This document shows positions 1 through 64,000 of a DNA stretch of 64,000 nucleotides, in pieces. The position numbers were made by a program, and so were the translations under genes. The notes under the pieces were generated by a model. It searched no databases. It was given only the letters and a program-made list of their open reading frames with translations, and was not told the origin of the DNA. Numbering within the stretch: the stretch's first letter is position 1; every line of letters starts with the position of its first letter. Origin of the DNA: an uncultured beta proteobacterium (GTDB taxonomy: Bacteria > Pseudomonadota > Gammaproteobacteria > Burkholderiales > Casimicrobiaceae); the NCBI GenBank assembly GCA_963734575.1, contig CAVTHT010000007.1, positions 160,549 to 224,548 of the forward strand. The letters run 5' to 3'.

Positions 1-278
1 CCTCCGCGGTGTAGCAGCCGGCGGTGTTCGGGCAGGTACGTGAACTCGCGCGGCGGCAGGGCATCGAGGAGCGACGGCGCGTTCGCATCCTGGCCGATGT
101 TCGTGCGCCGGATCGCCACCGTGACGATCTCGGCGCCCGATGCGACCACCGCATCGCGGGTCTGCGCGAAATCGCGGTACTTGCCGGTGCCGACGAGAAG
201 GCGCGAATGGTAGGTGCGCCCGGCGATGACGAGTGCGTCGGCGGGCGTGGTTTCGGCGGAGGTGTGCGGGGCGTTCAT
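1..278 (-). CDS. thiG: Thiazole synthase ThiG. Only the N-terminal ~92 aa are in the window; the gene runs off the 5' edge.
   Basis: Reverse translation gives [34 protein letters not shown]...TVAIRR...LPNTAGC.TAEEA, matching ThiG N-terminal motifs. The ATG is a 'cat' at 276-278, 24 nt downstream of the thiS stop. Confidence 0.85.
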
Positions 279-302
279 GGGCGCATTTTACGCCCGCGCG
301 AC

Positions 303-533
303 TCAGCCGCCGCCGACGGCGGCGACCACCTCGAGGCGGTCGCCGTCATGAAGCACGGTGGCGGCATGGCGGCTCCGCGGCACGATGTCGCCGTTGAGCT
401 CGACGGCGATGCGCTTGCCGGCGAGGGCGAGCTGGACGACCAGGTCGGCCACGGTGGCGGTGTGGCCGATGGCCAGTGGCGCTCCGTTGACGACCACGTG
501 CAGGGCCGGTGCGGTGACTGTTGTCTCGGGCAT
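303..533 (-). CDS. thiS: Sulfur carrier protein ThiS.
   Basis: A 76-aa ORF with a C-terminal GG (..VVAAVGGG) and the ThiS fold signature. It sits immediately upstream of thiG on the same strand. Confidence 0.85.
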
Positions 534-678
534 GCGACGATCGTATCACCGCGGCGGCGCCGGCGACGCCCGTCCATGGCGCGGCGGGGCGCGGTCGGCT
601 TCGGCCGCGAATGCATGCGCTGCCGGCGATGGAACACGCGTTCGTCCGGGGGCAGGGTTCGTGCTGTCGCCCGCGCGC

Positions 679-873: not shown

Positions 874-886
874 GTTTTCGAAACGC

Positions 887-1469
887 TCAGCGCCCGGCCG
901 GCACGGCGAACCAGTTCTGCTCGAGGCACATCCGCAGTGCGACCCTTGCGCGATAGAGGATCACCCAGAGGTTATTCGCGGTGATCGCCAGTTCCTTACA
1001 GATTTCGTCGGTCTCGAGCTCCAGCACCTCCCGCATCACGAACACGCGGGCCGTCGCGGGCGGAAGCTTCTCGAGGCAGAGATCCATCACGTCGAAGAAC
1101 TCCCGCTGCTCGAGCGCCGCATCCGGGTTGCCCCAGGCGTTCGGCGGCACGTCCCAGCCGCCATCCTCGCGAAACAGCGCCATCGAGCTCGTCGACGTCG
1201 AGCTCGCCACCCATCGCGGCGAATGCGGCCGCCGGGACCGCGTCGCGCTGCCTGCGCCGTATGGCATCGACGATCTTGTGCTTGAGGATGCCCGTGAGCC
1301 ACGTGCGCAGGCTCGACTTGCCCGAGAAGCCGCTTCCGGCGAGTGCGGCAAGGAGCGTTTCCTGCACCACGTCTTCCGCAGCGTCGGTGTCGCGCAACTG
1401 AAGGTGCGCGACACGGAAGAGATACGTGCGGTGACGCTCGAGCTCTGCGGAGAAGTCGGCGTGCGGCAT
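887..1469 (-). CDS. ECF sigma-70 factor with an apparent frameshift near 1190.
   Basis: Region 2 (ELERHRTYLFRVAHLQ..DAAEDVVQETLLAAL..RTWLTGILKHKIVDAIRRRQRD) reads in one frame from the ATG at 1469. Region 4 (ELETDEICKELAITANNLWVILYRARVALRMCLEQ) reads in the -1 frame and ends at 887. The frames switch at ~1185-1200. Confidence 0.7.
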
Positions 1470-8465: not shown

Positions 8466-8873
8466 ACGAGAGCCTCGACGACACGGTGCGGGCGTCATCG
8501 CCCGCGGAAGGCGGCCTGCTCGCGCGGGCGCGACGTTTCTCCGGCGCGCTGCTGGAGCACGTCGCCACGCGCGGCGAGCTGCTCGCGGTGGAGATCGGCG
8601 AGGAGAAGGAGCGGCTCATCCATGCGCTGATCGCCGCGGGCCTGCTGTTGCTGTGCGCGGGCATGGTGCTGGTGTTCGCCGGCGTGCTCGCGCTGGTGCT
8701 GGCGTGGGACTCGGAGTATCGCAACGTCGTTGCGTGGCTGATTCCGGTGGCGTTCCTCGCGATCGGCATCGGCTCGTGGCTGTGGCTGAAGAGCCTCATC
8801 GGCCGCAAGACGGCGCTGTTCCGCGACAGCCTGCGCGATCTGCGGCAGGACGCGCAAGCGTTGCGGCAGCTGA
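8462..8873 (+). CDS. DUF1469 (YqjE-like) membrane protein. The reading frame has no in-frame stop; the likely stop at 8871 is in another frame.
   Basis: The GTG at 8462 overlaps the yqjD stop (GTGA). Similarity to E. coli YqjE holds to the C-terminus (LAVEIGEEKERL.., LAWDSEYRNVVAWLIPV..LKSLIGRKTALFRDSLRDLRQDAQALRQ). The frame then stays open to 9823, with a TGA at 8871-8873 only in the -1 frame. Confidence 0.55.
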
Positions 8874-8874
8874 C

Positions 8875-9201: not shown

Positions 9202-9337
9202 ACGCGCAACCGCAAGTGCCATCGCAGCAAGCGCAAAGGCAGGAGCCCAGCCCCCGCGGCCGCAGGGCAGCACGCCTTTCATCAGTGACGTGCGGACCCT
9301 GCGCGAGCGGGCGCGTCGCCACATCGAGGAGGGTGCC

Positions 9338-10057: not shown

Positions 10058-11042
10058 ATGCTTGCCGTGATCGCCGGGGGCGTGGTGCTGTCGCTCGGGC
10101 GCGAGGTGTTCTTGCCGATCGTCGCCGCGGCGCTGCTGTCCATGCTGCTGTCGCCGATCGTCGCGCAGTTCGAGCGACTGCGGTTGCCGCGCATCGTGGC
10201 TTCGCTCCTCGTGATCCTCGGGGTCGTCGGCCTCCTGTTCCTGGCGATCGATGCGCTGCTGGAACCGCTCGCACGAGCGCTGGACCAGCTCCCCGCGATG
10301 GAAGGTCTCGTGCGCCGCACGCTGCGCGTCGCGCGCTACACGATGGGCGCGCCGTTCGCGGAATGGGTCGCCGCCCGCCTCGACGAGTGGACCGCGGCCG
10401 GCAAGAACGCCGCCTCGGCCGTGCTCTTCAGCCGCCTCCTCACCGCGTCCCTCGGCGCGGCGACGGTGCTCGTGCTCGCGTTCTTCCTGCTCGCCAGCGG
10501 CGATCTCTTCCTGCAGAAGCTCATCCGCGTCATCCCGCGCATCCGCGACAAGGTCAATGCGCTGAAGATCGTGCGGACCGTGCAGGAGGAGGTGAGCCGC
10601 TACCTGCTCACGGTCACCATGATCAACGCCGGGCTCGGCATCGTGGTCGGCACCGTGTGCTGGTACCTCGGCCTGCCGAACGCGATCCTCTGGGGCACGA
10701 TGGTCGGCGTGCTGAACTTCATCCCGTACATCGGGCCGTTCGTGAGCCTGTGCCTGCTCACGACGGCGTCGGCCGCGCACTTCTCGACCCTCGCGCGACA
10801 TCCTGCTCGTCCCGGTCGCCTTCTCCGGGATCACGATCGTCGAGGGACAGCTCCTCACGCCGATGATCGTCGGCCGTCGCGTCGAGCTCAACCCGGTCGT
10901 CGTCTTCGTCGGGCTGCTGCTGTGGTACTGGCTATGGGGCATCCCCGGGATGATCGTGGCGATCCCGATCCTCATCATCGCCAAGGTGTGGGCGCAGCAC
11001 ACCGAAGCGATGGCCGGCTGGGCCGAGTTTCTCGGCCCCTGA
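10058..11042 (+). CDS. AI-2E family transporter (PerM/UPF0118) with a frameshift at ~10795.
   Basis: FLPIVAAALLSMLLSPIV..NFIPYIGPFVSLCLLTTASAAHFSTLAR in one frame continues as DILLVPVAFSGITIVEGQLLTPMIVGRRVELNPVVVFVGLLLWYWLWGIPGMIVAIPILIIAKV in the +1 frame. The switch lies inside 'ctcgcgcgac'. Confidence 0.75.
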
Positions 11043-11051
11043 CCGGAGGCG

Positions 11052-11969
11052 GTGACGTGCCCGGCGAGGGCGTTGGCGCGGTACCGCGCGACTGCTCGGC
11101 CGCGCATGCCGGCGCTGGATCGAGGACGGCGCGAGCCGGCAGGGCGCGGCCATCGCGTTCTACGCCACGCTGAGCCTTGCGCCCTTCCTGCTGGTCCTCG
11201 CCGCCGTCGCGGCATTCTTCCTCGGTCCGGAAGCAGCGCGCGGCTACATCGTCGATCAGAGCGGCGCCCTCGTCGGCACCGAGGGCGGTGCTCTGCTCAA
11301 GGGGATGCTCGGCGCGGGCGGCTCGGCGCAGGCGAAGGGCTGGGCGGCCGCCATCGGGCTCGTGAGCACGCTTGCGGGCGCCACGGCCGGATTCGCGGAG
11401 CTGCAGACCACGCTCAATCGCGTGTTCCGCATTCCGGAGCGCCGGGGCATGCGCGCGACGCCTCACGTCGCGGCTGTGGTCGCTGCTGCTGGTGGTCGGC
11501 GTCGGCGTGCTCCTGGTCGCTTCCCTCGCCGTGACCGCGTTCGTGAGTCGCAGCCTCGACTGGTTCGAGGGACCGGCGCGCGTCACCAAATGGGCGACGC
11601 TGGCGGCCAACGAAGGCATCACTCTCGGCATCGCGACGGTGCTCTTCGGTCTCGTGCTCAAGGTGCTGCCCGATCGCGCGCGTGCCTTGGCGGCTGGCGA
11701 TCGGCGGCGGGTTCCTGACCGCGGTCCTGTTCCAGATCGCGAAGTTCGCGATCGGGTGGTACATCGGCCGCGCGACGCCGGGGGCTGCGTATGGCACCGC
11801 GGCGGCGCTGGTCGTGCTGATGCTGTGGATCTACTTTTCGGCGCAGGTCTTCCTGCTCGGCGCCGAATTCACGGCGGTGTCACTCGAGGCGCAGGAGGAC
11901 GCGACACGCATCGCGGCCCAGGCGCCGACGGCGGACGAACCCGACGCGCGCTGGACGACGACGCAATGA
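11052..11969 (+). pseudogene. YihY/BrkB family membrane protein split over at least 3-4 frames.
   Basis: Fragments GRWRGTARLLGRACRRWIEDGASRQGAAIAFYATLSLAPFLLVLAAV..RVFRIPERRG, then RLWSLLLVVGVGVLLVASLAV..VLKVLPDR, then VPWRLAIGGGFLTAVLFQIAKFAIGWYIGRATPGAAYGTAAALVVLMLWIYFSAQVFLLGAEF are each in a different frame. The switches at ~11450 and ~11678 lie in gcgcgcg runs. Confidence 0.5.
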
Positions 11970-12015: not shown

Positions 12016-12463
12016 TTACATCCGGAACACGCGGTTGCCTTCGATCCGCACGCGATCGCCCACACGCAGGTTGAGATCGTTGGAATTGTCGAGCTGCATG
12101 AGCGAGCCGGAGTCGGTGCGCACCGTGATGCGATAGCGGCTGCCTTCGACGCGATTCTGCTTCTCCACCTCGTTGCCGACCACCGCGCCGCCCACTGCGC
12201 CGGCGATGGTCGCCGCCGTGTTGCCGCTTCCGCTGCCGAACTGGTGGCCGATCACGCCGCCGGCAATGCCGCCGAGCAGCGCGCCCACGCCGACCGGGCC
12301 GGAGCCGTCACTGCGGAAGATGTCGATGTTCTCGACGACGCCGTACTGCACGCGCGGGGCGACGGTCGTCGTCGGGCCGTAGTAGCGGGTACGGCGCGCA
12401 GGCGCCGAGAACCAGGGCGCTGCCAAGCAGCGCGGCCGGAAGGAGATGTCGACGTAGGCTCAT
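12016..12463 (-). CDS. Glycine-zipper (SlyB/17-kDa-antigen-like) outer-membrane lipoprotein with a frameshift at ~12400.
   Basis: The signal peptide MSLRRHLLPAALLGSALVLGAC-A (lipobox) is in one frame. The mature part RRTRYYGP..GALLGGIAGGVIGHQFGSGSGNTAATIAGAVGGAVVGNEV.. is in the next frame, with the switch inside 'tgcgcgccg'. The ATG overlaps the upstream stop (ATGA). Confidence 0.6.
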
Positions 12464-12879: not shown

Positions 12880-12901
12880 GTCGGTCCCTTGTTGTAGTTT
12901 G

Positions 12902-13138: not shown

Positions 13139-13231
13139 GGCGGGGCTCTCCTTATCCGCAACGATGATAAGGACGCGCGCGCGCCCACGGCATAAGACGC
13201 CGGCTCGAACCCCTGTAGGCGGGCGCTTACA

Positions 13232-14700: not shown

Positions 14701-14950
14701 ATGACCAAGGACAACAAGGAATACGGCGAGGGCAACTACAAGGCCACGCGCGATTACAACGAACGGACCAAGCGTTTCATCGAGTCGGGCCAGGTGGAGG
14801 AAGCTGCCCAGAACGCAGCGCCGCAAGGATGCGGGGGAAGCCGCGGAGATGAAGGACGCCGAGCAGATCGGTCGCAGCCACGCGAAGGAAGAGGATCCGG
14901 CGCTGCTCAAGGGCAAGCGTCGTCCGGCCGATACCGGACGCTCCTCCTGA
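14701..14950 (+). CDS. Small conserved hypothetical protein (~82 aa) with a frameshift at ~14822.
   Basis: An aaggag RBS precedes MTKDNKEYGEGNYKATRDYNERTKRFIESGQVEEAAQNAAP. The +1 frame continues as KDAGEAAEMKDAEQIGRSHAKEEDPALLKGKRRPADTGRSS* with the stop at 14948-14950. The original frame runs on as Arg-rich junk. Confidence 0.45.
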
Positions 14951-16020: not shown

Positions 16021-16900
16021 ATGGACGTGGGTGCGCAGCCGCCACCCGTGCGCGCCGATGCCGCGAAGGAAGCGGCCGAGGCGAGGGAAGCCGACGAGCG
16101 CAGCGCACCGGCCGGGTCGGTCGTCTACAAGGCAATCCTGAAGGAGGGCGAGGAGGAACTGGCGCGCTCCAGCTCCGGGCTGTTCTGGTCGGGCATCGCG
16201 GCCGGACTCGCGATGGGCATGTCGATGATCGCGCAAGGCCTGCTGCAGACCTATCTTCCGGATGCCCGGTGGCAGCCGCTGGTGGCGAAATTCGGCTACA
16301 GCGCGGGATTCCTGATCGTGGTGCTCGGGCGTCAGCAGCTCTTCACGGAAAACACGCTCACCCCGATTCTCCCGCTCCTGCAGCGCAAGCCGGGTGCCAC
16401 GCCGCGCAACGTGCTGCGGCTATGGTCGGTGGTGCTGGTCGGCAATCTCCTCGGAGGGCTCGCCATCGCACTGGTCGCCGCGCACACGAGTGCCTTCGAC
16501 ATCCAAGTGCAACGCGCCTTCCGCGACATCGGCGCGAAAGCGATGGAGAATGGCTTCGGAACGGTGCTGCTGCGCGGGGTCTTCGCCGGATGGCTGATCG
16601 CGCTGATGGTATGGCTGCTTCCCGTTTGCGGAAACTGCACGCGTCTGGGTGATCATCATCATCACCTATCTCGTGGGTCTCGGCGAGTTCAGCCACATCA
16701 TTGCAGGGTCCATCGAGACGTTCACGCTTGCGGCGATGGGCGGGGCACCGTGGAGCACCGTGCTCGGGGATTACGTGCTGCCAACGCTGATCGGCAACGT
16801 GCTGGGAGGAGTGACGCTCGTCGCCACGCTCAACCACGCGCAGGTCACCGCCGGCGGCGACGGCGCCGGACTGCAAGGGGGACTCGGTTCGGATCCTTGA
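16021..16900 (+). CDS. Formate/nitrite transporter (FNT) family channel with a frameshift at ~16627.
   Basis: RQQLFTENTLTP..LWSVVLVGNLLGGLAIALV..WLLP then, in another frame, AETARVWVIIIITYLVGLGEFSHIIAGSIETFTL (FNT GFEHSIAN-like). The switch is at the 'cttcccgtt' C-run. Confidence 0.7.
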
Positions 16901-17353: not shown

Positions 17354-18296
17354 ATGAAGAAATGGATCGCGCTGCTTGCGCTGTGCGTCGTTCCCGCTGT
17401 CTCCGCCGAGACCTGCCCCGACAAGAACATCCTGTACTGGCAGGCGTTTCCGCCGGGCGGCGAATCGGATCTTTCGGCCCGGCACCAGCAGGTCGTCCTC
17501 AAGAAGCACTGCGCGGCGATCGACACCGTCATCCAGTACAAGGCGGGTGCGGGCGGCGGCCTGATGTGGTCGCAGATGAACCAGCTGCCCGGCGATGGCT
17601 ACAACGTGGTCGGCATCAACCTGCCGCACATCGTGTTCCAGCCCATCGAAGGGCCAGGTCCAGTACAAGACCGACGACGTGACACCGGTCTTCTGGTTCC
17701 ACTACACGCCCGACGCGCTCGTGGTGCCCGAGTCGAGCCCGATCAAGACGTTCCAGGATTTCGTGAAGGCGGCCAAGGCGTCTCCCGAGAAGATCTCGCT
17801 CGGTGGATCGGGACTCAATTCCGCCAATCATGCGGCGCACGAGCGCCTCGATGCCGTGTTCGGCGTGAAGACGACCTACGTCCCGTTCAAGGGGACCGGC
17901 GACATGACCACGGCGATCATCGGCGGGCACGTCGATGGGGCGATGTCGTACACCGCGTTCGCGATCAACAACAAGAGCAAGGTGCGCGCACTCGCGGTCG
18001 CGATGGAGAAGCGCCATCCGCTGCTGCCGGACACACCCACGTTCCGTGAGCTCGGCGTCGACTGGGTCGATGGCGCCTACCGCGGGATCGGCGTGCCGAA
18101 GTCGACGCCGCCCGAAGCGCGCAAGCGGCTGTCGGAGCTCTTCGCATCGCTCAACAGCGATCCGGAAATGAAGGAGCTCGCCGCAAAGAGCGGGTTCGAG
18201 CTCATCAGCGTGGGCCTCGACCAGATGGATCCCTTCATGAAGGAGAAGATCAAGCTCTACACCGAGGGGGCGAAGCGCCTCAATCTCGGCAAGTAG
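17354..18296 (+). CDS. Tripartite tricarboxylate transporter substrate-binding protein (TctC/Bug family) with a frameshift at ~17651.
   Basis: Signal peptide MKKWIALLALCVVPAVSA. Bug-family body ..QYKAGAGGGLMW..VVGINLPHIVFQPIEG | QVQYKTDDVTPVFWFH..KGTGDMTTAIIGGHVD..; the frames switch at 'gaagggccagg'. Confidence 0.75.
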
Positions 18297-21472: not shown

Positions 21473-22433
21473 ATGACGACCGCCATCTCGCTCGCGATCG
21501 TGTTCCTCGGCGGGCTCGCGGCGTACCTGGCCTGGGCCGCTTCGGCGTGGCACTCCGGAGCGGATGCCCTGTGGCTCGCCGCGGGCGCGCTGCTGCTCTA
21601 CGGCGCGGTGTTCGGCGTCGTGACCGCCGCGTGGTTCGCCCTCGCATGGGTCTACCGCGTCCAGCGACCACGCGAGGTACAGCTCGGCATGCGCGCCACC
21701 CTGCGCCTCTTCTGGCGTGAATGGCTGACGCTCATGGGCTCCGGGCTGCGTATGGGCTTCGGCTGGTGGTTCATGCGCGAGCCCCGACCGCAGCGGGCAG
21801 CGGCGCCGGTGCTGCTCATCCATGGCGTGCTCTGTAACGCGGGCGTCTGGCTCGGTATGCGCGGCGCGCTGCACCGTCTCGGCATGGGTCCGGTGTACAC
21901 GATCACCTACGGCCCGCCGCTCGCGTCCATCGACGAATTCGCGACGCAGCTCGCGCGCAGCATCGAAGCCATCGTCGCCGCCACCGGGGCGCCGCGCGTG
22001 GCGCTCGTTGGCCACAGCATGGGCGGCCTCGTCGCCCGCGCCTACCTGCGCCGCTACGGCAGCGCTGCGCGTCGCGCGCGTGATCACCATCGGCACGCCG
22101 CATCGCGGCAGCGTGCATGCGTGGATGTTCCTCGGGAAAAGCCTCGCCCAGTTGCGGCCGGGCAACGCGTGGCTGCGGGAGCTCAATGACGCCTTGCCGA
22201 ACGACGTTCCGATGGTGTCGATCTGGTCCTGGCACGACTCGATGGTCGCGCCGCAGGATTCGGCCTGTCTCGACGGCGCACGCAACGTCGCCCTCGCCGG
22301 CATCGGTCACAACGCGCTGCTGCGCGAGCCGGAGGTGGCGCGCAGCGTCGTGGCCGCGACGAGCTGCGCGACGGCGCCGTGCCGCGAGCCGCGGACCGTG
22401 GCGGCGCGCTCTACCAGTGAATGCCCTGGGTGA
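21473..22433 (+). CDS. Alpha/beta-hydrolase lipase (LipA/PGAP1-like) with a frameshift at ~22065.
   Basis: N-terminal TM helices; PVLLIHGVLCNAGVW, the nucleophile elbow GHSMGG, then YLRRYGSA | ARVITIGTPHRGS in the next frame. The switch lies in 'cgcgtcgcgcgcgtg'. Confidence 0.7.
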
Positions 22434-24401
22434 GCTGCGCGAAAGCCATCTGCTCGGCGGAGAGCTGCTGTGGCCCTTCGCCTTGCTTGCGGCCTTGTGC
22501 AGCCGGCGAGTCGGGGAACATGTTGTAGGCGGTGTTGAGCAGGATCTGCGTGAGCTTCGGGCGCGATGGCGTGGCAGACCGCACCGAAGATGCCGAGGCG
22601 CGTGGCGATGCGCACGGGCTTGTAGACGATCGCCTCGGCCACGAGGTCCGCCGCCTGCTCGGGCGAGAGTGTCGGCACGTTCTCGTACATCTTCGTCGGC
22701 GCGATCATCGGCGTGCGCACGAGCGGCATGTTGATGGTCGTGAAGTTGATGCCCTTGTCGAGGAACTCCGATGCCGCGCACGCGGCGAACGAATCGAGGG
22801 CGGACTTCGAGGCGACGTAGGCGGAGAAGCGCGGCGCGTTCGACAGCACGCCGATGGACGAGATGTTGATCACGTGCCCGCGGCGCTGCTCGACCATCTT
22901 CGGCATGAACCCCAGGATGAGCCGCACGGCGCCGAAGTAGTTGAGCTGCATCGTGCGCTCGAAGTCGTGGAAGCGGTCGAGCGAGTTCATGATGCCGCGG
23001 CGGATCGAGCGCCCCGCGTTGTTGATGAGGTAGTCGCAGCCGCCGTGCTCGTCCAGCACGCGCGCCACGAGCGCGTCGCAGGACGCGAGGTCGGACAGGT
23101 CCGCGGTGTAGATCCAGGCCTTGCCGCCGAGCTTCTCGATCTCGGCCTTGGTCTCGAGGAGCTTCTCCTCGCCGCGCGCCACGAGGATCACGTGCGCGCC
23201 CGCCTCGGCGAGCCGCAGCGCGGTGGCACGCCCGATGCCCGACGACGAGCCGGTGACCACCGCCACGCGGCCCTTCACGCGCCCCGACAGCGAGCGGTCG
23301 ATGAAGAGGTCCGGATCGAGGTTGCGCTCCCAGTAGTCCCACAGTTTCGCGGCATAGGTCTGCGACGTGCGGCACGCTGATGCCCGAGCCCTTCAGCGCC
23401 TTCATCGCCTCGCGATTGTCGTAGCGCGTCGGCCAGTTGACGAACTGGAACACGTCGCGCGGAATGCCCAGGTCGGTGAGCACCGCTCGCAACATGCGCT
23501 TCACGGGCGACAGCGATCCCAGACCGTAAAGGATCGGCGCCGGGATGAAGCCGAACATGCGCGCGTTGAGGCGCATCGTCATCTGCGGCGCATGCGCGGC
23601 ACGCGCGAAGATGTTGAGCACTTCGCCGATACGGTGTGGTGCGGGATCCGTCAGGTGGAATGTCTTGCCGTCGAGCCCCTTCTTGTGGGCGATGTGGTCG
23701 AGCGCATCGGCGACGAAATCCACCGGCACGATGTTGATGCGCCCGCCTTCGATGCCGATCGTCGGCATCCACTGCGGCAGGGCCTTGCGCAGCTTCTGGA
23801 TGAGCTTGAAGAAGTAGTACGGGCCATCGATCTTGTCGATGTAGCCGGTCTTCGAATGCCCGACGACGAAGCCGGGACGATAGATGCGAAACGGCCGCTG
23901 GCATTCGCGCCGCACGATGCCCTCGGCCTCGTGCTTGGTGCGGAAGTAGGGATGGTCGAGCTCCTCGGCTTCCTCGAACATGTCCTCGCGGAACACGCCT
24001 TCGTAAAGTCCCGCTGCCGCGATGGAGCTCACGTGATGGAAGCAGCCGGCCTGCATGGCTTCGGCGAACTCGACCGCGTGCCGCGTGCCGTCGACGTTCG
24101 CGACCATCTGGTCCTCCGCGCTCGCGGCGAGATCGTAGATCGCCGCGAGATGGAAGAAGTGCCGGACCTTGCCCTTGAGCTTGCGCACGTCGGCATCGGA
24201 CACGCCGAGGCGCGGCCTGGCGAGGTCGCCGATGATCGGCACCACCTGGCGCTCGTCGGCGTTCCAGAACTCGCGCAGCGACGCAAGCTTGTCGAGCGAG
24301 CTCTTGCGCACCAGAACGTAGACGGTTTCCTGCCGCTCCAGCAGTCGTGCGACAAGGAATCGACCGATGAAGCCGGTCGCGCCGGTGACGAAATAGGGCA
24401 T
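22411..24401 (-). CDS. Two-domain fatty acyl-CoA reductase: an N-terminal NAD_binding_4 (male-sterility) domain and a C-terminal Acr1-like SDR. Frameshifts at ~23350 and ~22565.
   Basis: gaggag RBS. N-domain MPYFVTGATGFIGRFLV..HVSSIAA..YFRTKHEAE. Linker ..VADLCRE | LWDYWERNLDPDLFIDRSLSGRVKGRVAVVTGSSSGIGRA (SDR TGxxxGIG) ..NNAG..SAYVASK. The C-terminal tail is restored in a third frame (..ILLNTAYNMFPDSPAAQ..GIHW*). Confidence 0.75.
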
Positions 24402-24548: not shown

Positions 24549-25122
24549 ATGCTGAAGAAGGCGAAGGCGGAAGCGACGGCGGGACCGATGGAACAGGCGA
24601 AAGAGCTTTCGCAGTCGGTGCTCAATTCCTCGCACCAGATCTGGCTGGCAGGGCTCGGGGCTTTCGCCCGCGCGCAGCAGGAAGGCATGAAGGTGTTCGA
24701 GACGCTCGTGCAGCAGGGCCAGCAACTCGAATCGCGCACGCGGCAGGCCGCCGCAGACACCGCGACCGCTGCGCGCGGCGCCGCAAGCGCGAAGGCGAAG
24801 GAGATGCAGAAAATGGCCGGTGGAACGTGGGACAAGCTGGAGCAGGTTTTCGAGGACCGCGTCGCGCGGGCGCTGTCGAAGCTCGGCGTCTACACCCAGA
24901 ACGATGTCGAACGGCTGGCGCAGCGCGTCGACGCTCTGAGCGAGGCCGTGAACCGACTGATCAATGCGCAGGGGGGCACACCCGTGGCGGCGCCGAAGCG
25001 CGGCGGATCGTCCACCGCTAAACGGAGTGCCGCGAAGAAGGGCGCGCGGCGCACGACGAGCAAGTCGGCACGGCGCGCCTGCGCGCAAGACGCCACGCGC
25101 GACGAAGCAGGCCGCCAGCTGA
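24549..25122 (+). CDS. Phasin (PhaF/PhaI-like granule-associated protein) with a Lys/Ala-rich histone-like tail. Frameshift at ~25078.
   Basis: Phasin motif SSHQIWLAGLGAFARAQQEG. The tail ..AAPKRGGSSTAKRSAAKKGARRTTSKSARRA | PARKTPRATKQAAS* switches frame in 'cggcgcgcctgcgcgc'. A terminator follows directly. Confidence 0.7.
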
Positions 25123-38574: not shown

Positions 38575-40606
38575 ATGGCAACCATTCCCGCCGAAACTCC
38601 CGCACGCACGTCCACATCGGCCGGACAATCGCTCAGGCCGGCCGAAGCCGGCGCGGCGCCGCTGCGCCACTGGCGCCTCACCCGGGACCCCAGATGGCAT
38701 CGCGCGTCTCGTGCTCGATCGCGCCGAGGCGAGCACCAATACGCTCTCCGGTGCCGTGCTCGCGGAGCTCGATCGCGCGCTCGACGCTCTGCAGCGCGAC
38801 CCCCCCGCCGGCCTCGTCATCGCATCGGGCAAGGCGAACGGCTTCATCGCGGGTGCCGACGTCGACGAGTTCGGCGACGTGCGCTCCGAGGCCGATGCGC
38901 TGGCCCTCGTGCGCCGGGGTTGGGACACGTTCGAGCGCCTCGCAGCGGTGACGTATCCCACCGTCGCACTGGTGCGTGGCTTCTGCCTCGGTGGCGGCCT
39001 CGAGCTCGCGCTGGCGTGCCGCTACCGCGTCGTCGTCGACGAGCCCGCGACACGCCTCGGGCTGCCCGAGGTGATGCTCGGCATCCTTCCGGGCTGGGGT
39101 GGGATCAAGCGCCTGCCGCACCTGACCGGGGCGCCTGCCGCGCTCGATCTGCTGCTCACCGGGAAGACGGTCGATGCTCGCAAGGCACGCAAGCTCGGCA
39201 TCGCCGACGAATGCGTTCCGCCGCGCGTGATGGAGAACGCCGTCCGCGGCCTGTTGCGTGCGCGGCCTCCGGTGCGCAAGCTCAAGTTCCCGCTGTCGCT
39301 GACCTTGCAGCCGTTGGTGCGGCGAATCATCGCCGCCCAGGCGCGCAAGCAGGTGGCGCGTCGCGCGCGGCGCGAGCACTATCCCGCGCCGTACGCGATC
39401 CTCGAGGTCTTCGCGCGCTACGACGGCAACGCGCTCGCCGTGCCGCCTGCGGACGACGCGTCGATCCCGGCATTGCTGCGCTCGCCCACGGCGGCCAATC
39501 TCATCCGGGTCTTTCGCCTGCAGGAGCGCCTGAAGTCGCTCGGCAAGGAAGGCGACTTCACCGCCGCGCACGTGCACGTCGTCGGGGGCGGCACGATGGG
39601 CGGGGATATCGCGGCGTGGTGCGCCCTGCGCGGCATTCGCGTGACGCTGCAGGATCAGGACGCGCAGCGCCTCGCGCCGGCCATGGGCCGCGCAGCGAAG
39701 CTCTTCAAGGAGCGCCTGCGCGATCCGCGGCGCGTGCGCGACGCCATGGATCGACTGATACCCGACGTCGCGGGCGATGGCGTCCGGCGTGCGGACGTGA
39801 TCATCGAGGCGATCTTCGAGAACCTCGAGGCGAAGCGGAGCCTGTTCGCCAGGCTGGAGCGCGAGGCGCGCAGCGATGCCATCCTGGCGACGAACACGTC
39901 GTCGATCCCGCTCGAGAGCATCGCGACCGCGCTCAGCGATCCGGGCCGGCTGCTCGGTCTGCATTTCTTCAATCCCGTTGCGCGCATGATGCTGGTGGAG
40001 ATCGTCGCCGGAGCCTCCACGCGTGCGGACCTCCTGCCGCGCGCGGCCGCGTTCGTGCGCCAGATCGACCGGCTGCCGCTGCCCGTGAAGAGCGCGCCCG
40101 GATTCCTCGTGAATCGCATCCTCGCCCCGTATCTCATGACGGCGATGCGCTGCGTCGACGAAGGCATCGCCCCCGAGACGGTGGACGAGGCCGCGCTGGC
40201 CTTCGGCATGCCGATGGGACCCATCGAGCTCGCGGACACGGTGGGCCTCGACATCTGCGTCGCCGTGGGCAAGATGCTCACGCCCGATGCACAGCCACCA
40301 CGCCGGCTGGCGGAGCTCGTCGCCGGCGGCAAGCTGGGCAAGAAATCGAAAGCGGGGTTCTACGACTGGTCGAGCGGCAAGCCGGCCAAGGCGGCGGCAG
40401 GAACGCCTCCCGCCGGCCTCGCCGATCGCCTGATCCTGCCGTTCGTGAATGAGGCGAAGGCCGCGCTCGCGGAAGGGATCGTGGACGACGCCGATCTCGT
40501 CGACGCCGGCGCGATCTTCGGGACGGGATTCGCACCGTTTCGCGGTGGACCCCTGCACTACGCGCACGAGCAGGGCCTGGCGTCCGCACGCCTCGCTGGC
40601 GCGTGA
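38575..40606 (+). CDS. Fatty-acid oxidation complex alpha subunit (enoyl-CoA hydratase plus 3-hydroxyacyl-CoA dehydrogenase, FadJ/FadB-like) with a frameshift at ~38692.
   Basis: MATIPAETP..HWRLTRDP | DGIARLVLDRAEASTNTLSGAVLAEL..GFIAGADV..GGGLELALAC.. (crotonase) ..HVHVVGGGTMGGDIAAW (NAD-binding). The frames switch at 'gaccccagatgg'. Confidence 0.85.
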
Positions 40607-50186: not shown

Positions 50187-50828
50187 ATCGCATCCCTGCT
50201 TTCGCCGCGCGCACGCGCGCTGTCGGGCGTCGCTGCGGCCATCGCCGCACTGGGCCTGACGATGACGGCGGCCACGGTCGTGGCGCAGACGCCCGCCGCT
50301 CCGGCCGCGCCGACCACGGATACTGCCGCGCCCAGGCCGGCCGCGGGAACCGCCGCCGCCGATGCCGCGGGCAAGCCCACCGAAACGCCACCAACGCTCG
50401 CGTCGATGCAATGGCTGGAGGGTTGCTGGCAGGGCAGCGTGAACAAGCGCGACTTTCGCGAGGTGTGGCTGCCCCAGCGCGGCGGCATGATGATCGGCGT
50501 CAGCCAGACGGTGATGGCCGACAAGACCCTCGACTACGAGTACCTGCGCCTCGAGCCGCGCGGCGACGCCGTGTACTACGTCGTCTCGCCGCCGAACAAG
50601 CCCGAGGAGGCGTTCAAGCTCACCTCCGAGCTCGTCGACAAGGAAGACGCGCACACCTTCGTGTTCCTCGATCCTGCGCGCGACTTCCCGCAACGGATCG
50701 GATACCGGCGGGCGAGCGAGGGCTGGCTCTACACCGAAGTCGAAGGCAAGGTGAAGGGCGCCGACCGCAAGGTGATCTATCCGATGCGGCGCGTGGACTG
50801 CGCGACGGGCGAATTCATCCGCAAGTGA
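50183..50828 (+). CDS. Secreted conserved hypothetical protein (DUF6265-like) with a frameshift at ~50215.
   Basis: MNRIPAFAARTRA | LSGVAAAIAALGLTMTAATVVAQTPAAP.. (signal peptide in the next frame) ..MQWLEGCWQGSV..YYVVSPPNKPEEAFKLTSEL. The switch lies inside 'gcgcgcacgcgcgc'. Confidence 0.55.
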
Positions 50829-51188
50829 CGACCGTGACCGACGTCGCGCCCTCGGCAGCACTGCAGAACTTCCGGCGCATGCTGGAGGCGGGCAAGGACG
50901 GAGCGCTCCTGCGCTTCGCGCTCGGCAACGAGCTGTTGAAGGCCGGGGACGCCGCCGAAGCGGTCGGAGCATCTTGCGCGCGCGGTGGAGCTCGATCCGC
51001 GCTACACCGCGGCATGGAAGATCTACGGCAAGGCGCTGGCCGCGGCGGGTCGCAGCGACGATGCGCTGGCCGCCTACCGGCAGGGCATCAGCGTGGCCGA
51101 TGCGAAGGGCGACAAGCAGGCGGGGAAGGAGATGCGCGTGTTCGCGCGTCGCATCGAAAGCAGTCGAGCAGGAGGCGACGCCGTTTAG
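50825..51188 (+). CDS. Small TPR-repeat protein with a frameshift at ~50960.
   Basis: ..LLRFALGNELLKAGDAAEAV | ..LDPRYTAAWKIYGKALAAAGRSDDALAAYRQGISVADAKGD are TPR-like helices. The GTG overlaps the upstream stop. Confidence 0.4.
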
Positions 51189-51725: not shown

Positions 51726-52473
51726 TCACTCGACGCGCTCGATGCACTCGCGCACCTGGCGTGGGGCGGTCGCGAGGCCGCGGGTCGCGCGCTCCCATGC
51801 CGGCGTGATGATGCGCATGCCCAGCACTTTCTTGGTCGCGCGCAGGAAGTACGCGCCGCCCGCGATGGGCCACCAGCGATCGCCGGCGCGCTCGAAGAAG
51901 CCGAACCGGCGCAGCCATTTTTCCTGCGCGAACGGCGGCGCATAGCAATCGAGACTGCCGCCGGTCACCTCGAAGCCGAGCAGCGCCAGCCAGTCCTTCA
52001 GCCGGTAGAGGGCGATGAAGTTGCCGTTCCATGGCGGCGCCTGCTCGCGTCCGAAATAGCGCTTCGCGCCGTGCAGGCTGAACGGGTTGAAGCCGGAGAT
52101 GAGGAGCTGGCCCTCGGGTCGCACGGCACGATGCACTTCGCGCAGCAGCCGGTGCGGCTCGCTCGGAGAATTCCAGCGCATGCGGGAGCACGATGAGATC
52201 GAGCGAGCTTTCGGGAAACGGCAGCCAATGCGGATCGGCGAGCACTTGCGCGGGTCCCCCGCCATCGACCAGCCAGCGCGTCGGGATGCGGCTCTGCGCG
52301 AGGAACTCGCAGGCGGGAAGTCCGATCTGAATGGCGTGGAAGCCGAAGATGTCGGCGACGGTGCGATCGAACCACGCCTGCTCGCGCGCGAGCAGATAGC
52401 GACCCGGCGGCGTGGTCAACCAGTCCGCGAGCGTCGTTGACAGCGGTGCCGGCGCTCCCGAAGATGCTTCCAT
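51726..52473 (-). CDS. Class I SAM-dependent methyltransferase with a frameshift at ~52190.
   Basis: ..[12 protein letters not shown] | [32 protein letters not shown].. It is divergent from gloB, with a shared CATG at 52471-52474. Confidence 0.65.
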
Positions 52474-55141: not shown

Positions 55142-55583
55142 TTACTTGCGGCTTGCGGACTTCCGGGCGCCGCCGCGTTTTTTCGCGGCAGACTTCTTGG
55201 CGCCGCCGCGCTTCTTCGCTGCGGACTTCTTCGCACCGCCGCGCTTCTTCGCTGCGGACTTCTTCGCGCCACCGCGCTTCTTCGCGGCCGACTTCTTGGC
55301 GCCGCCGCGCTTCTTCGCCGCCGACTTCTTGGCGCCGCCGCGCTTCTTCGCTGCGGACTTCTTCGCGCCGCCGCGCTTCGCGGCCGTCTTCCGCGCGCCG
55401 CCGCGCTTCGTGGCGGACTTCTTGGCGCCGCGTGCGCTTCTTCGCGGCCGACTTCTTGGCGCCGCCGCGCTTCTTCGCTGCGGTCTTCTTCCCAGCGGAC
55501 TTCTTCCCCGCGGAGCGCTTCTTCGCGGGAGCCTTCGCCGGGGCCGCAGCCGTCGGCGTCATCATCGACATCATGTCAGCCAT
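55142..55583 (-). CDS. Histone H1-like/AlgP-like Lys/Ala-repeat protein encoded by 33-bp tandem repeats. Frameshift at ~55430.
   Basis: aggaga RBS; MADMMSMMTPTAAAPAKAPAKKRSAGKKSAGKKTAAKKRGGAKKSAAKKR.. then, after one irregular 34-bp repeat unit, (GGAKKSAAKKR)xN ..GGARKSASRK* ending at a TAA (55142-55144). Confidence 0.6.
55160..55530. repeat. Tandem 33-bp coding repeat (about 10 units, gccgccgcgcttcttcgc(t/g)gc(g/c)gacttctt).
   Basis: cttctt hexamers recur at alternating 15- and 18-nt offsets from 55193 to 55518. The only break is a 19-nt step at 55418 to 55437. Confidence 0.8.
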
Positions 55584-55854: not shown

Positions 55855-57100
55855 CTACGGAAGGACCGACTCGCCGGCGAAGAGCGAGGCCGCGCTCTCG
55901 CGTGCGCGGACCTCGTGCGCGGTCGCGCCGTCGACCAGCACCTCGCATGCGCGGGGCCGCGAGTTGTAGTTGGAGCTCATCACGAAGCCGTAGGCACCCG
56001 CCGCGCCGATGGCGAGGAGGTCGCCTTCGACGAGCGCGAGATCGCGGTCGTGCGCCAGGAAATCGCCGCTCTCGCAGACGGGGCCGACCACCTGCCAGCG
56101 CTGCATGGGCGAGCTGCGCGGACGCACTGCGTCGACCGGATGCCATGCCTCGTACAGCGCCGGGCGGATGAGATCGTTCATGGCCGCATCGACGATCGCG
56201 AAGTTGCGCTCCCGGCCCGGCTTCAGGAACTGCACGCGCGTCAGCAGCACGCCGGCAGCACCGACGAGCCGGCGCCCGGGCTCGACCAGGAGGCGCTCGT
56301 CGCGGCCGGCGAAGAGCTCCCCGATCATCGCTGCGTACGCCGTCATGGGCACGGGCGTCTCGTCGCGATAGCGAATGCCGAGGCCACCGCCGAGGTCGAT
56401 GTGCTCGAGCACGGTGCCCTGCTGGCGCAGCGTGTCGACGAGCTCCAGCACCTTGGTGACGGCCTCGCGATAGGGCTCCAGGGTGGTGATCTGGGAGCCG
56501 ATGTGGAGGTCGATGCCGCGCACCGCGATGTGCGGGAGCGCGGCGGCGCGCTGGTAGAGCGCGCGGGCTTCGGTGAATGCGACGCCGAACTTGCTCTCCG
56601 AGAGCCCGGTCGCGATGTACGGATGCGTGCGCGGGTCGACGTCCGGGTTCACGCGGAAGCTCACCGGTGCGCGTACTCCACGGCGCGCCGCCACCGCGTT
56701 CAGCGCATCGAGCTCACTCGCCGATTCGACGTTGAAGCAGAGAATCCCGGCGTCGAGCGCCGCCTCCATTTCGGCGGCGGTCTTGCCGACACCCGAGAAC
56801 ACCACCTTCGCCGGGTCGCCGCCGGCGGCGAGCACGCGGGCGAGCTCGCCGCCGGAGACGATGTCGAAGCCGCTGCCGAGCCGGGCGAGCAGGTCGAGGA
56901 TGGCGAGATTCGAGTTCGCCTTCAGCGCGTAGCAGACGAGGTGCGGCCGCGCGGCGAGCGCGGCGTCGTACTCGCGATAGCTCGCCTCGAGCGCAGCGCG
57001 CGAGTAGACATAACAGGGCGTGCCGAAGCGCTCGGCGATGGCGCGACAGCGGCACCTGCTCGGCACGGAGCTCGCCATCGACGTACGCGAATGCGCTCAC
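55855..57100 (-). CDS. lysA: Diaminopimelate decarboxylase LysA with an N-terminal frameshift at ~57047.
   Basis: GTG start; (M)SAFAYVDGELRAEQVPLS | AIAERFGTPCYVYS..ALKANSN..HIGSQ..GGGLGI..CESGDF..SSNYNSRPR is collinear with Pseudomonas-type LysA. The switch is an extra C in 'tcgCgccatc'. Confidence 0.85.
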
Positions 57101-57342
57101 GGCCGCGACGTGCCGGCGGGACTGGTCGGCGGCGTCGGCACCTGTGCCGGCGCCGGCGCGTTCGGCGCGGGCACCGCATCGGGGATCGCCGGCGCCGATT
57201 GCTGCGGCGTTGCGGCGGGTGCGGGCACGAGCGGCCCCTTGATGCCGCACGCGGCCAGCATCATCGCGGCGGCGAGCGCCAGCAGCGAGGCCGCGCGGCG
57301 CGCGCGCGCCGCATGCAAGGAATGTTCGGCATCACGTACCAT
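57097..57342 (-). CDS. Small lipoprotein upstream of lysA (LppL/LptM-like).
   Basis: ..RRAASLLALAAAMMLAAC-G lipobox, then a Pro/Ala-rich tail. The arrangement matches the conserved lppL-lysA pair. Confidence 0.6.
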   Translation of the reverse strand: MVRDAEHSLHAARARRAASLLALAAAMMLAACGIKGPLVPAPAATPQQSAPAIPDAVPAPNAPAPAQVPTPPTSPAGTSRP

Positions 57343-57405: not shown

Positions 57406-57756
57406 ATGCTGACCGAATCCGAATTCATCGCTGCCGCCGACGCGACCCTCGCGCTCATCGGAGAAACCCTCGACCAGGCGCTCGCCGATTCGGACATCGA
57501 TCTCGACTGGAGCCTCAACGACGGCATCCTCGAGATCGAGTGCGAGGACGGAAGCAAGCTCATCGTGAACCGGCACGTGCCGAACCGCGAGATCTGGGTT
57601 GCGGCGCGTGCGGGCGGCTTTCACTTCCGCGCCCGGGACGGACGCTGGCAGGACACGCGCTCGCGGCGACGAGCTTGCCGCGGCGCTGCGGACGCTGCTT
57701 GCCAACCAGGCGCGCCTCGAGCCCGCGTTCCCGACACTCACCGCGCCGCGCGACTA
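57406..57756 (+). CDS. cyaY: Frataxin homologue CyaY with a frameshift at ~57665.
   Basis: MLTESEFIAAADATLALIGETLDQALADSDIDLDWSLNDGILEIECEDGSKLIVNRHVPNREIWVAARAGGFHFRARDGRWQDTRS | GDELAAALRTLLANQA..*. The switch is an extra C in 'tcgCggcgac'. Confidence 0.75.
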
Positions 57757-61949: not shown

Positions 61950-62881
61950 CACGCCGCCGCCTTCGCGACTGCGCTGCCGAGCATCGGGAATCCGAGCGCC
62001 TCGCGCGACTCGTAGTACGCCTGCGCCACCATCCGCGAGAGGTTGCGGATGCGGCCGATGTACGCCGCACGCTCCGTGACCGAGATCGCGCCGCGCGCAT
62101 CCAGCAGGTTGAACGTGTGCGCTGCCTTGAGGATCATCTCGTAGCCGGGCAGCGGCAGCTTCGCCTCGAGCAGACGCTTCGCCTCGCTCTCGAAGAACGA
62201 GAACAGCTTGAAGAGCTCGGGCGCATTCGACTGCTCGAAGTTGTACGTCGACTGCTCCACCTCGTTCTGGTGGAACACGTCGCGGTAGGTGAGGGTGCGC
62301 TCGACGTTGCCCTGCGGAGTGCGCTCGTCCCACGTGGCCCACACGAGATCGAACACGTTCTCCTTGCCCTGCAGGTACATCGCGAGGCGCTCGAGACCGT
62401 AGGTGATCTCCCCGGTGATGGGATTGCAGTCGAGCCCGCCGACCTGCTGGAAGTACGTGAACTGCGTCACCTCCATGCCGTTGAGCCATACCTCCCAGCC
62501 GAGGCCCCAGGCGCCGAGGGTGGGGTTCTCCCAGTCGTCCTCGACGAAGCGCACGTCGTTCTTCGTGAGATCGAAGCCGAGTGCGGCAAGGGAGCCGAGA
62601 TAGAGGTCGAGGATGTCCGGCGGCGAGGGCTTCAGCACCACCTGATACTGGTAGTAGTGCTGCATGCGGTTCGGATTCTCGCCATAGCGACCGTCCTTGG
62701 GACGGCGGGAGGGCTGCACGTATGCGGCGCGCCACGGCTCCGGTCCGAGCGCGCGCAGGAACGTCGCGGTGTGCGACGTGCCGGCGCCGACTTCCATGTC
62801 GTAGGGCTGCAGCAGAGCGCATCCCTGACGATCCCAGTAGTCCTGCAGCTTGAGGATGACCTGCTGAAAAGTGAGCATGAT
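61949..62881 (-). CDS. glyQ: Glycine--tRNA ligase alpha subunit.
   Basis: [59 protein letters not shown] is near-identical in motif order to E. coli GlyQ. Confidence 0.9.
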
Positions 62882-62933
62882 GAAGCGATGTGCGCCATGT
62901 GCGGCGCGCTCGCGCACGATCCAAACCGCCATT

Positions 62934-64000
62934 TTAGCGTGCGGGACCGTCCTGCCCCGGTCGCCTGCTGCGATGGCCGCTGCGGCGCGCGGTCCATGCG
63001 GTCAGCGCGAGCACGAGCGCGGCGACGGCCACGGCGACGCCGTCACCCCAGCGCACATAGGGCGTTTCGCCGCGTCGTCCCTCGACGCTCACCTCGAGCG
63101 TGTCGCGCGTGAACCACGGCAGGCGTGCGATTTCGCGGCCGTCGTACGCGATGGCCGACGTGATGCCGGTGTTGGTCGAGCGCAGCAGCGGACGTGCGGT
63201 TTCCACGGCGCGCATGGCGGCGATCTGGTTGTGCTGCTCGGCGGCGAGCGAGCGCGCGTACCACGCGTCGTTGGTGACGTTCACCAGCACGGTTGCCGCG
63301 GCGGCCTGCGGACGGATGTCGGCGCCGAACACGTCCTCGTAGCAGATGTTCACCGCGACCCGCTGGTCCGCTATGGCGAAGGCAGGCTGGTCGGCCGCGC
63401 CGGCGCTCTGGTTCGCGAGCGGGATCGACAGCACCGAGCGGATGAACCAGCCGACCACGGGCTCCAGCGGAATCGTCTCGCCGAAGGGCACGAGGTGGCG
63501 CTTGCGATAGACCTGCGGTGCAGCCACGCCGAGGCTGATCACGCTGTTGTAATAGCGCAGTCCGGTGTGGCCGGGCTCCGGCGGCTCGACGGTGAAGAGG
63601 CCGGTCATCACCGCACCGTCGCGCTGCGCGGCGACGGCGAGCAGGTCCTCGAGCACGGTGCGCGGGACCTCGTCGGCGAACGCCGGCAGCGCGCTTTCCG
63701 GCAGGACCACGAGCCGGCCGCGCGACTCGCGTGCCAGCGTCGTGTACAGGCGGAAGGTGGCGTCGCGCATCGCGGGATCGAACTTGACGTCCTGGCTGAC
63801 GTTGCCCTGCACGAGGGAGACGGCGAGCGGGGCGCCCGCCACGACGCTCCACGAGACCGTACGCAGCGCCGCACCCACGGCGACGATTGCGAGCACCGCC
63901 AGCGCGGTGCCTGCCACGTCCCTGTGCCGGCGTTCGACGAACGCATCCACGCCGATGGCGCAGGCGGCGGCGATGCCCGCATATGCGAAGCTCACGAGCC
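62934..64000 (-). CDS. lnt: Apolipoprotein N-acyltransferase. Only the C-terminal CN-hydrolase domain is in the window; the gene continues past the 3' edge.
   Basis: ..[62 protein letters not shown] are Lnt nitrilase-fold motifs. The stop is at 62934. Confidence 0.85.

Follow-up and report, generated by a model that had tools for sequence, protein, structure and literature searches.

Single-base insertions, very probably consensus errors, break the reading frames of conserved genes in a deposited Casimicrobiaceae assembly

Twenty conserved genes in the 64,000-nt stretch of Casimicrobiaceae (Burkholderiales) DNA analysed here (the window) are interrupted by 24 frame breaks, a count that leaves out a candidate break in a Ku-like ORF (Table 1). 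The breaks occur once per 2.7 kb and affect approximately 29% of the genes in the window. All 24 consist of one extra base and none of a missing base (two-sided binomial p = 1.2e-7). Judged from the sequence, the extra bases very probably entered the deposited assembly as single-base insertion errors in its consensus, and in the organism itself the broken genes most likely have intact reading frames. The frame breaks named in the original prediction are real: 24 were found at the places it listed, and all nine of the junctions that it quoted lie within ~15 nt of those located here. Its totals were too high, since about 28 genes and one event per 2.3 kb had been claimed while its own list sums to 20 genes and ~24 events, and the '+/-1' frame changes that it described all proved to be in one direction.

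We divided the window into segments by GC3 reading frame and searched both frames of each candidate gene for Pfam profiles. Because global DNA alignment to the relative L001 (~72% nt identity) was too noisy for indel placement, we mapped proteins of relatives onto the window by frameshift-aware protein-to-DNA alignment, a method that places events at codon boundaries by construction. DNA-level alignment was confined to relatives that were close enough, and the remaining junctions were read by eye. Further breaks considered in the anti-sigma/thiS/thiG region (1-960) were rejected; this region comprises three separate intact genes.

Table 1. Positions of the 24 frame breaks in the window, with strand and evidence or description.
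Gene or product	Position	Strand	Evidence or description
ECF sigma factor	1172..1190 (~1180)	-	one extra base
yqjE	8864..8873 (~8869)	+	just ahead of the stop; probable
AI-2E transporter	10795..10796	+	Pfam frames and uninterrupted L087 gene
YihY/BrkB, break 1	11055	+	extra A right after the GTG start, GTG[A]CGT
YihY/BrkB, break 2	11459..11462	+	frameshift-aware alignment to L087
YihY/BrkB, break 3	11677..11678	+	repairs delete C11677 or G11678, runs of 1
Gly-zipper lipoprotein	12380..12390 (~12385)	-	between signal peptide/lipobox and mature part
Small conserved protein	14825..14831	+	frame change in window, none in L001 and L087
Formate/nitrite transporter (FNT)	16621..16627	+	Pfam profile 2-169/240 ends at 16626
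TctC (tripartite tricarboxylate receptor)	17650..17658	+	Pfam profile 59-264 in second frame only
Lipase (alpha/beta hydrolase)	22066..22067	+	frame change; L001 275-aa gene intact
Fatty acyl-CoA reductase/SDR fusion (FAR), break 2	22558..22562	-	AVCHAIA/PKLTQILL, L087 residues identical
FAR, break 1	23362..23363	-	NAD_binding_4 and adh_short in different frames
Phasin, C-terminal	25075..25095	+	K/A-rich tail in next frame; probable
WS/DGAT, break 1	25932	+	inserted A, GTTTC[A]TGCTC
WS/DGAT, break 2	26467	+	inserted G, GTGC[G]ACGG
TetR regulator	34197..34204	+	TetR_N in frame +0, TetR_C_30 in +1
fadJ, N-terminal	38688..38693	+	frame change at junction
DUF6265	50210..50231	+	inside signal peptide; probable
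TPR protein	50953..50954	+	frame change in window, none in L083 135-aa gene
SAM-dependent methyltransferase	52161..52162	-	between rnhA and gloB
Lys/Ala-rich H1-like protein	55425..55435 (~55430)	-	frameshift-aware alignment
lysA	57040..57044	-	at about codon 20
cyaY	57663..57664	+	Frataxin_Cyay profile 1-88/107 ends at 57666

The coordinates of the Pfam profiles continue from one frame into another, which excludes chance. In the ECF sigma factor, Sigma70_r2 and Sigma70_r4_2 are found in successive minus frames (junction ...ELDVDELD/ALFREDGGW), and the match to the AI-2E transporter profile moves to the next frame between profile positions 4-245 and 259-326. YihY breaks 2 and 3 distribute the BrkB profile over three successive frames (2-112, 111-188 and 184-254), and the WS_DGAT_cat and WS_DGAT_C profiles are likewise spread over three frames. 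At the FNT junction the product passes from frame +0 (...MVWLLP) to frame +1 (FAETARVWVIII).

The junctions can also be followed in the genes of relatives. The JGI relative L087 has an uninterrupted AI-2E gene (87% aa identity) and a continuous FAR homologue (663 aa, 87% aa identity), against which the two FAR breaks align at the DNA level as GGTCT[G]CGAC versus GGTCT-CGAC (break 1) and CGG[G]CG versus CGG-CG (break 2). The YihY frame that carries the homology is without a start codon in the window; L087 reads GTG CGT... at this point, with identical residue spacing. The lipoprotein is encoded as MSLRRHLL...LVLGACAPYP in one frame and YYGPTTT...GNRVFRM, followed by the stop, in the next, and its L087 homologue is continuous. 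The gene for the small conserved protein contains one extra base (GCCGC[A]AGG versus GCCGC-AG). TctC aligns as LPHIVFQPIE/GQVQYKTDD to a homologue on L010, a contig that came from a scan with the tartrate-type dehydrogenase and that belongs, like the other matches listed, to other genera at no more than 86% identity. Both WS/DGAT breaks appear as single-base gaps in blastn alignment to L002 (85% nt identity, stated for break 1), and the repaired WS/DGAT protein of 484 aa matches a 484-aa homologue with 87% identity over 100% of its length.

The TetR gene of L001 is continuous (238 aa). The fadJ product moves to the next frame between MATIPAE...APLRHWRLTRDP and DGIARLVLDRAEAS..., and because of an in-frame ATG at 38570 this break can stay hidden from gene callers. 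In lysA, VSAFAYVDGELRAEQVPLSR and IAERFGTPCYVYS... are encoded in successive frames; the L083 LysA is continuous at 413 aa. One extra base is called in the gene for the H1-like protein relative to a 131-aa gene of L083 (79% aa identity), and cyaY reads WQDTRS/GDELAAAL in alignment to the same contig. The methyltransferase sequence ALEFSE/EPHRLL corresponds to ALEFSD EPHGLL in both L083 and the Logan contig L084. The JGI contig L086 (94% nt identity) stops 2 nt short of the methyltransferase break, and the site is therefore not pinned by L086.

The breaks in yqjE, the phasin and DUF6265 have weaker support, from frame logic, synteny and signal-peptide logic only, and are called probable. In yqjE, which was judged without a close relative for comparison, the Phage_holin_3_6 profile (5-116/116) ends at 8866 in a frame that stays open to 9820, and the stop TGA (8871-8873), which the yqjK ATG directly follows at 8875, is displaced from the reading frame by one base. 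The phasin tail in the next frame reads ...ARKTPRATKQAAS up to its stop, and repair of the break gives a protein of ~190 aa and a spacer of 70-80 nt to ACBP, as in L001. For DUF6265, the reading moves to the next frame between MNRIPAFAARTRA and LSGVAAAIAALGL...; its ATGA overlap with the DUF6352 stop is kept in L083.

Deletions of 2 nt are ruled out, since the junctions retain all residues. The longest homopolymer run at any candidate site is 4, and long A/T tracts (~9 or more) of the kind that would permit rescue by transcriptional slippage were found at none of the sites. At eight sites or more, the only frame-restoring deletions that keep the residues of the relative remove bases in runs of 1. 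The best-scoring repairs of AI-2E delete G10795 or C10796 only, those of the lipase T22066 or G22067, and those of cyaY a G or a C, each of these bases being a run of 1. Repair is unique, and again in a run of 1, at FAR break 1, at each of the two WS/DGAT breaks and in the methyltransferase. The positions of the breaks are compatible with uniform scatter (KS p = 0.08). A slight clustering, with 12 breaks in 8-24 kb and 0 in 40-48 kb, is not significant (chi-square p = 0.10).

Among the assemblies compared, which represent relatives and include none of the same species, the breaks are private to the deposited assembly. No break occurs at any comparable site in L087 and L086 (JGI), in L002, L084 and L085 (Logan), or in the L001/L083 contig, so that the comparison with related genomes suggested at the outset came out in favour of an assembly defect. 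When JGI metagenomes were scanned for the exact sequence pattern spanning the WS/DGAT junction, no match emerged. A similar defect was detected elsewhere: ERZ25039533:contig_68264, a related contig named automatically in the contig_NNNNN style, has breaks of its own at other positions and at higher density, with 23 extra versus 9 missing bases in three genes, also outside homopolymers.

The broken products checked (three) are present letter for letter in a public protein collection, all on one 352,548-nt NCBI/ENA contig, as WS/DGAT of 173 aa (25586-26104), AI-2E of 371 aa (10058-11170) and LysA of 407 aa (55858-57078). The breaks are thus part of the deposited assembly itself, not something added to the window. 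Deliberate perturbation, which the original prediction had entertained, is refuted for these three breaks. Random-looking single-base insertions outside homopolymers are indeed what a simulator would produce, but given the exact records, and given that a search with the repaired WS/DGAT protein returned no near-identical intact protein (best match 87%), we attach next to no credence to a deliberate or accidental change of the window after download. Genuine pseudogenes, produced by rapid genome decay that would have left real frameshift mutations in ~29% of the window genes, are very unlikely. In favour of pseudogenes, the deposited sequence does contain the breaks, many of the affected genes are accessory (YihY, AI-2E, Gly-zipper, TPR, DUF6265), and a large fraction of genes interrupted by frameshifts is also characteristic of recently host-restricted genomes of the Mycobacterium leprae/Sodalis type. 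In those genomes, however, selection is relaxed, IS elements have expanded, and deletions and nonsense mutations are present; the window shows no sign of any of these. Bacterial mutation is deletion-biased, whereas the lesions here are +1 insertions only, with no nonsense codons, larger deletions or IS elements among them and no in-frame stops in the aligned broken genes. Identity to relatives is the same on either side of the breaks (86/89/82% for the successive parts of FAR, 86/84/90% for WS/DGAT), downstream identity equals or exceeds upstream identity with no relaxed constraint past the lesion, and GC3 stays high in the new frame. The core genes lysA, cyaY and fadJ are affected along with accessory ones, relatives are intact at the break sites, and three genes carry more than one break (YihY three, FAR and WS/DGAT two each) and are otherwise pristine. 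The good homology on both sides of the breaks and the involvement of essential genes, both asserted beforehand, were borne out, and the single direction of the changes, the lack of decay and the lack of nonsense mutations support the indel errors of a draft or long-read assembly that had been proposed.

Recoding, in which programmed +1 ribosomal frameshifting, quadruplet decoding or RNA-level base removal would restore the frames, would draw on the facts that the same +1 correction is needed at all events and that many junctions fit the pattern NCG-C or NNS-S. The apparent G/C pattern is to be expected with a GC3 of 88% and an aligner that places events at codon boundaries, and a search for a quadruplet or shift motif common to the sites gave nothing that GC-rich codon usage would not predict. 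Frameshifting of the prfB type also restores a frame by a +1 correction, but prfB-type sites are conserved, occur once per genome, and combine a defined shift motif containing an in-frame stop with an upstream SD-like element; the 24 sites in the window share no motif and are conserved in no relative, the orthologues being encoded in a single frame. The sites offer neither a stop or rare codon nor a homopolymer for slippage, one of them lies one base after a start codon and another right before a stop, and the related assembly has similar events at unrelated positions, plus deletions. We consider recoding vanishingly improbable. The wider proposition that the extra bases are real and that about one third of the genes are expressed through motif-independent +1 recoding or post-transcriptional base removal, or in a weaker version that a free-living bacterium underwent an insertion-only burst of pseudogenisation, is extremely unlikely.

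Errors in the assembly consensus are the reading that we favour. Noisy long reads of modest coverage are the probable basis of the source contig, and we infer that the extra bases arose at the consensus or polishing stage. As in long-read (Nanopore or PacBio CLR) assemblies and MAGs, isolated 1-nt indels every few kb split conserved genes, do not appear in the relatives' JGI and Logan contigs, and leave truncated or split calls in the public annotation. Frameshifts from long-read consensus indels are well documented (PMC9262707) and are addressed by IDEEL-type tests and by proovframe (PMC9262707; 10.1101/2021.08.23.457338). Typical residual nanopore errors are homopolymer indels (PMC9262707). 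Unlike these, the errors in the window are insertions (24:0, more extreme than the 23:9 of the related contig) and lie mostly outside homopolymers, so that they do not carry the classic nanopore homopolymer-deletion signature and homopolymer-length miscalls do not fit; we found no published account of an insertion-only, non-homopolymer profile in nanopore assemblies. The profile is closer to the insertion-dominated noise of PacBio CLR reads, which contain ~8% insertions versus 3% deletions (10.1101/2021.08.23.457338), or to an artefact of a consensus algorithm. It fits an insertion-dominated process, either raw-read noise such as that of PacBio CLR data left unpolished, or a consensus step in which the two alleles of a polymorphic site were both retained next to each other.

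By the latter route a polymorphic site X/Y would have become XY in the consensus. At the well-resolved sites, deletion of either of two adjacent different bases leaves a sensible codon. The two outcomes are synonymous in AI-2E, YihY break 3, the lipase, the TPR protein and cyaY, and conservative in WS/DGAT (L/M, H/R), FAR (E/Q) and the methyltransferase (D/E), and at each comparable site one of the two readings matches the relative. Merging of alleles would account for both the 24:0 ratio and the lack of homopolymers. A random insertion beside a third codon position, however, generates the same ambiguity, the codon-boundary placement is built into the aligner, and we found no literature on such behaviour of a consensus step; we regard the merging of alleles as possible but doubtful.

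The value of these observations is as an annotation warning; they hold no biological meaning, the genes being almost certainly intact in the organism. Approximately 29% of the genes on the public contig are mis-annotated as fragments or with wrong ends, and analyses of gene content, pathway completeness and selection that use this genome and its sister assemblies would be biased unless the frames are corrected. The insertion-only, non-homopolymer signature differs from that of textbook nanopore data and is worth reporting to pipeline maintainers. Alternative start codons hide the breaks in fadJ (a 678-aa ORF) and lysA (the 407-aa record), and pseudogene flags would therefore miss both.

Reading frames were assigned along the window by a Viterbi model with seven states, built on codon-position GC and penalising stop codons. 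ORF lists were not relied on, since a GC content this high (68% across the whole window) makes out-of-frame ORFs long. A frame switch was taken as adjacent genes where the upstream frame ended at a stop codon, and as a candidate break where it stayed open. Pfam scans were run on both frames of the candidates, and a purpose-written protein-to-DNA aligner was used in which an extra base and a missing base could be called at equal cost; it puts events at codon boundaries by construction. The window genes are betaproteobacterial in type, and the names linked to the GlyQ protein cluster point to Casimicrobiaceae (Burkholderiales).

The analysis gave 24 events in 20 of the approximately 69 genes. 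The aligner called breaks in WS/DGAT (two), the small protein, the lipase, the phasin, TetR, the TPR protein, the methyltransferase, the H1-like protein, LysA, CyaY, AI-2E, YihY (two), the Gly-zipper lipoprotein, the fatty acyl-CoA reductase (two) and TctC. Six further breaks came from reading junctions by eye: the ECF sigma gene, yqjE (a TGA one base out of frame, directly ahead of the yqjK ATG), FNT (WLLP/FAETARVWV), fadJ (...LRHWRLTRDP/DGIARLVLDRA), DUF6265 (within the signal peptide) and a third in YihY (an A directly 3' of the GTG start, giving GTGA). The breaks in yqjE, the phasin and DUF6265 are probable. The original prediction had named these genes and example coordinates, all of which we recovered to within ~15 nt; its count of 28 genes was too high.

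Across several genes, one Pfam family continues from one frame into the next. The AI-2E profile is matched at positions 4-245 and 259-326 in two frames, the BrkB (YihY) profile at 2-112, 111-188 and 184-254 in three successive frames, and WS/DGAT carries WS_DGAT_cat 2-119, WS_DGAT_cat 130-262 and WS_DGAT_C in three frames. Two frames likewise hold Sigma70_r2 and Sigma70_r4_2 (ECF sigma, both minus strand), TetR_N and TetR_C_30 (TetR), and NAD_binding_4 and adh_short (reductase), and the matches to FNT and CyaY end at profile positions 169 of 240 and 88 of 107. WS/DGAT stitched from its three frames is 484 aa long, with 87% identity to a 484-aa homologue over 100% of the length. LysA is an especially clear case, with the canonical N-terminus VSAFAYVDGELRAEQVPLSR in one frame and IAERFGTPCYVYS in the next.

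Every one of the 24 events is a single surplus base in the window, with no case of a missing one (two-sided binomial p = 1.2e-7). They are not 2-nt deletions, because residues are contiguous across the junctions. At five sites DNA alignment places a single-base gap in the relative (extra base bracketed in the table). We also enumerated every nearby single-base deletion that brings back the frame while still yielding the residues of the relative; at 8 sites or more the acceptable repairs are solely bases without an identical neighbor, and neither this enumeration nor the junction reading found a run longer than 4 at a break site. Insertions occur at each of the three codon positions, one just after a start codon and one just before a stop, and their positions are compatible with uniform scatter (KS p = 0.08; chi-square on 8-kb bins, p = 0.10).

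Coordinates of features in the window (~, approximate)
Feature	Position	Strand	Detail
Ku-like ORF	1882-2576	+	matches Ku profile positions 79-172 of 190 only
yqjD (DUF883), yqjE, yqjK, dps cluster	8077-9792	+	
Weak coding signal	12458-13256		
Weak coding signal	14069-15579		
DNA-aligned extra base	~14826		GCCGC[A]AGG
TctC and tartrate/isopropylmalate-type dehydrogenase	17200-19400		
Neutral-lipid/PHA-granule cluster	21400-34700		
DNA-aligned extra base	~22560		CGG[G]CG
DNA-aligned extra base	23362		GGTCT[G]CGAC
DNA-aligned extra base	25932		GTTTC[A]TGCTC
DNA-aligned extra base	26467		GTGC[G]ACGG
Callable FadJ, 678 aa	38570-40606		
Callable LysA, 407 aa	55858-57078		
LptM/LppL-like lipoprotein gene	57040-57340	-	MVRDAEH...LAACGIKGPL...

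Relatives read in a single frame at every site that could be compared. They comprise a syntenic contig of 246 kb (ena:ERZ25039533:contig_68264, matching window 12.9-36.7 kb as locus L001 and ~42-64 kb as L083), a 9.4-kb JGI contig (L087) with AI-2E, YihY, the Gly-zipper lipoprotein, the small protein and the reductase at 69-87% amino acid identity, short Logan and JGI contigs (L002, 85% nt; L084; L085; L086, 94% nt) and a TctC homologue (L010). Contig_68264 is itself interrupted by many frame changes, at positions other than the window's (23 extra and 9 missing bases in FadE, FadL and the reductase, outside homopolymers); none of this kind was seen in the relatives' JGI and Logan contigs.

Natural pseudogenisation of these genes is contradicted by several observations. 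Bacterial mutation is deletion-biased, whereas the lesions here run one way, as insertions only. The two sides of each break match the relatives equally well (by segment, 86/89/82% identity in the reductase, 86/84/90% in WS/DGAT and 80/88% in TetR), no in-frame stops were found in the broken genes, and the GC3 coding signal persists in the shifted frame; there are neither nonsense mutations nor relaxed constraint. Some genes are broken more than once yet are otherwise pristine, lysA, cyaY and fadJ are among those broken, and long intact genes (fadE, fadB, glyS and acyl-CoA synthetase) stand among them. The findings likewise contradict programmed +1 frameshifting, quadruplet decoding or slippage: no motif or homopolymer is common to the sites, and the sites are not conserved in any relative. 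The alternative of a perturbed window, also raised in the original prediction, is refuted by the public record. A protein 100% identical to the window's GloB is on a 352,548-nt NCBI/ENA contig, where exact look-up also found three broken products as encoded here: the WS/DGAT N-terminal fragment (173 aa, ending at the out-of-frame stop), the AI-2E fragment (371 aa) and the N-terminally truncated LysA (407 aa). The breaks therefore lie in the deposit. In the public protein collection the best match to the stitched WS/DGAT is 87%, and a near-identical intact version was not found.

The breaks are very probably an assembly artefact. Indel errors of a draft or long-read assembly, the main reading proposed initially, are supported by the one-way lesions, the lack of decay and the relatives' read-through, and the independent, insertion-rich, scattered single-base lesions in two related assemblies indicate that the cause is technical. 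It is well known that indels left in a long-read consensus cause frameshifts, low-coverage bins require additional polishing, and the typical nanopore error is a homopolymer-length miscall (PMC9262707), a signature the window breaks do not show. PacBio CLR reads carry ~8% insertions versus 3% deletions (10.1101/2021.08.23.457338); insertion-dominated, position-random noise is typical of them, and the window breaks are insertions only and scattered. The contig_NNNNN naming style also occurs in Microflora Danica deposits among the matches listed. The long-read catalogue of that project was built from Nanopore reads with Flye and one Medaka polishing round (PMC12313526); naming likeness alone cannot tie the window's source to those data. 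One idea, and only that, is that at sites varying in the sampled population the consensus might keep both alleles side by side, which would account both for the 24:0 ratio and for the fact that homopolymers are avoided. At each well-resolved site, two adjacent unlike bases are present, and with either one deleted the codon is synonymous or conservative (L/M, H/R, E/Q, D/E); one reading of each pair equals the relative's. However, random insertions beside wobble positions would look the same, and the codon-boundary placement is built into the aligner. The biological interest of the breaks is low; their practical value lies in warning users of the annotation.

Gene callers cannot see two of the breaks. 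In fadJ an in-frame ATG gives a plausible protein with a spurious 40-residue N-terminus, and the callable LysA is the product on public record. A yqjE-dps fusion appears in ORF lists, its frame open for 1.8 kb, because the yqjE stop is lost. The small LptM/LppL-like gene overlaps, at its end, the true lysA GTG start (GTGA) and is divergent from cyaY, an arrangement as in Pseudomonas. The N-terminal half of the Ku-like ORF was sought in every frame and not found; this ORF may be truncated, divergent or carry a further undetected error. Both stretches of weak coding signal contain several short conserved ORFs also present in L087, L088 and L127, in inconsistent frames, and may include small genes or more breaks that escaped detection.

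Frame errors are much denser in contig_68264 than in the window, with ~15 in fadE alone and 32 in three genes, and the contig's gene calls are heavily fragmented. The neutral-lipid/PHA-granule cluster is conserved in L001 (lipase, FAR-SDR fusion, phasin, ACBP, WS/DGAT, TPR protein, TetR, patatin, second phasin, GMC oxidoreductase, DUF8198, PHA_gran_rgn and TetR). It is followed by a full beta-oxidation set (fadE, fadI/J, acyl-CoA synthetase, thioesterase, fadL and fadB/A), and gene order across this region is the same in the 246-kb contig. TctC and the adjoining dehydrogenase, which is 86% identical to a Noviherbaspirillum protein among the matches listed, are missing from that contig and look like an acquired two-gene island.
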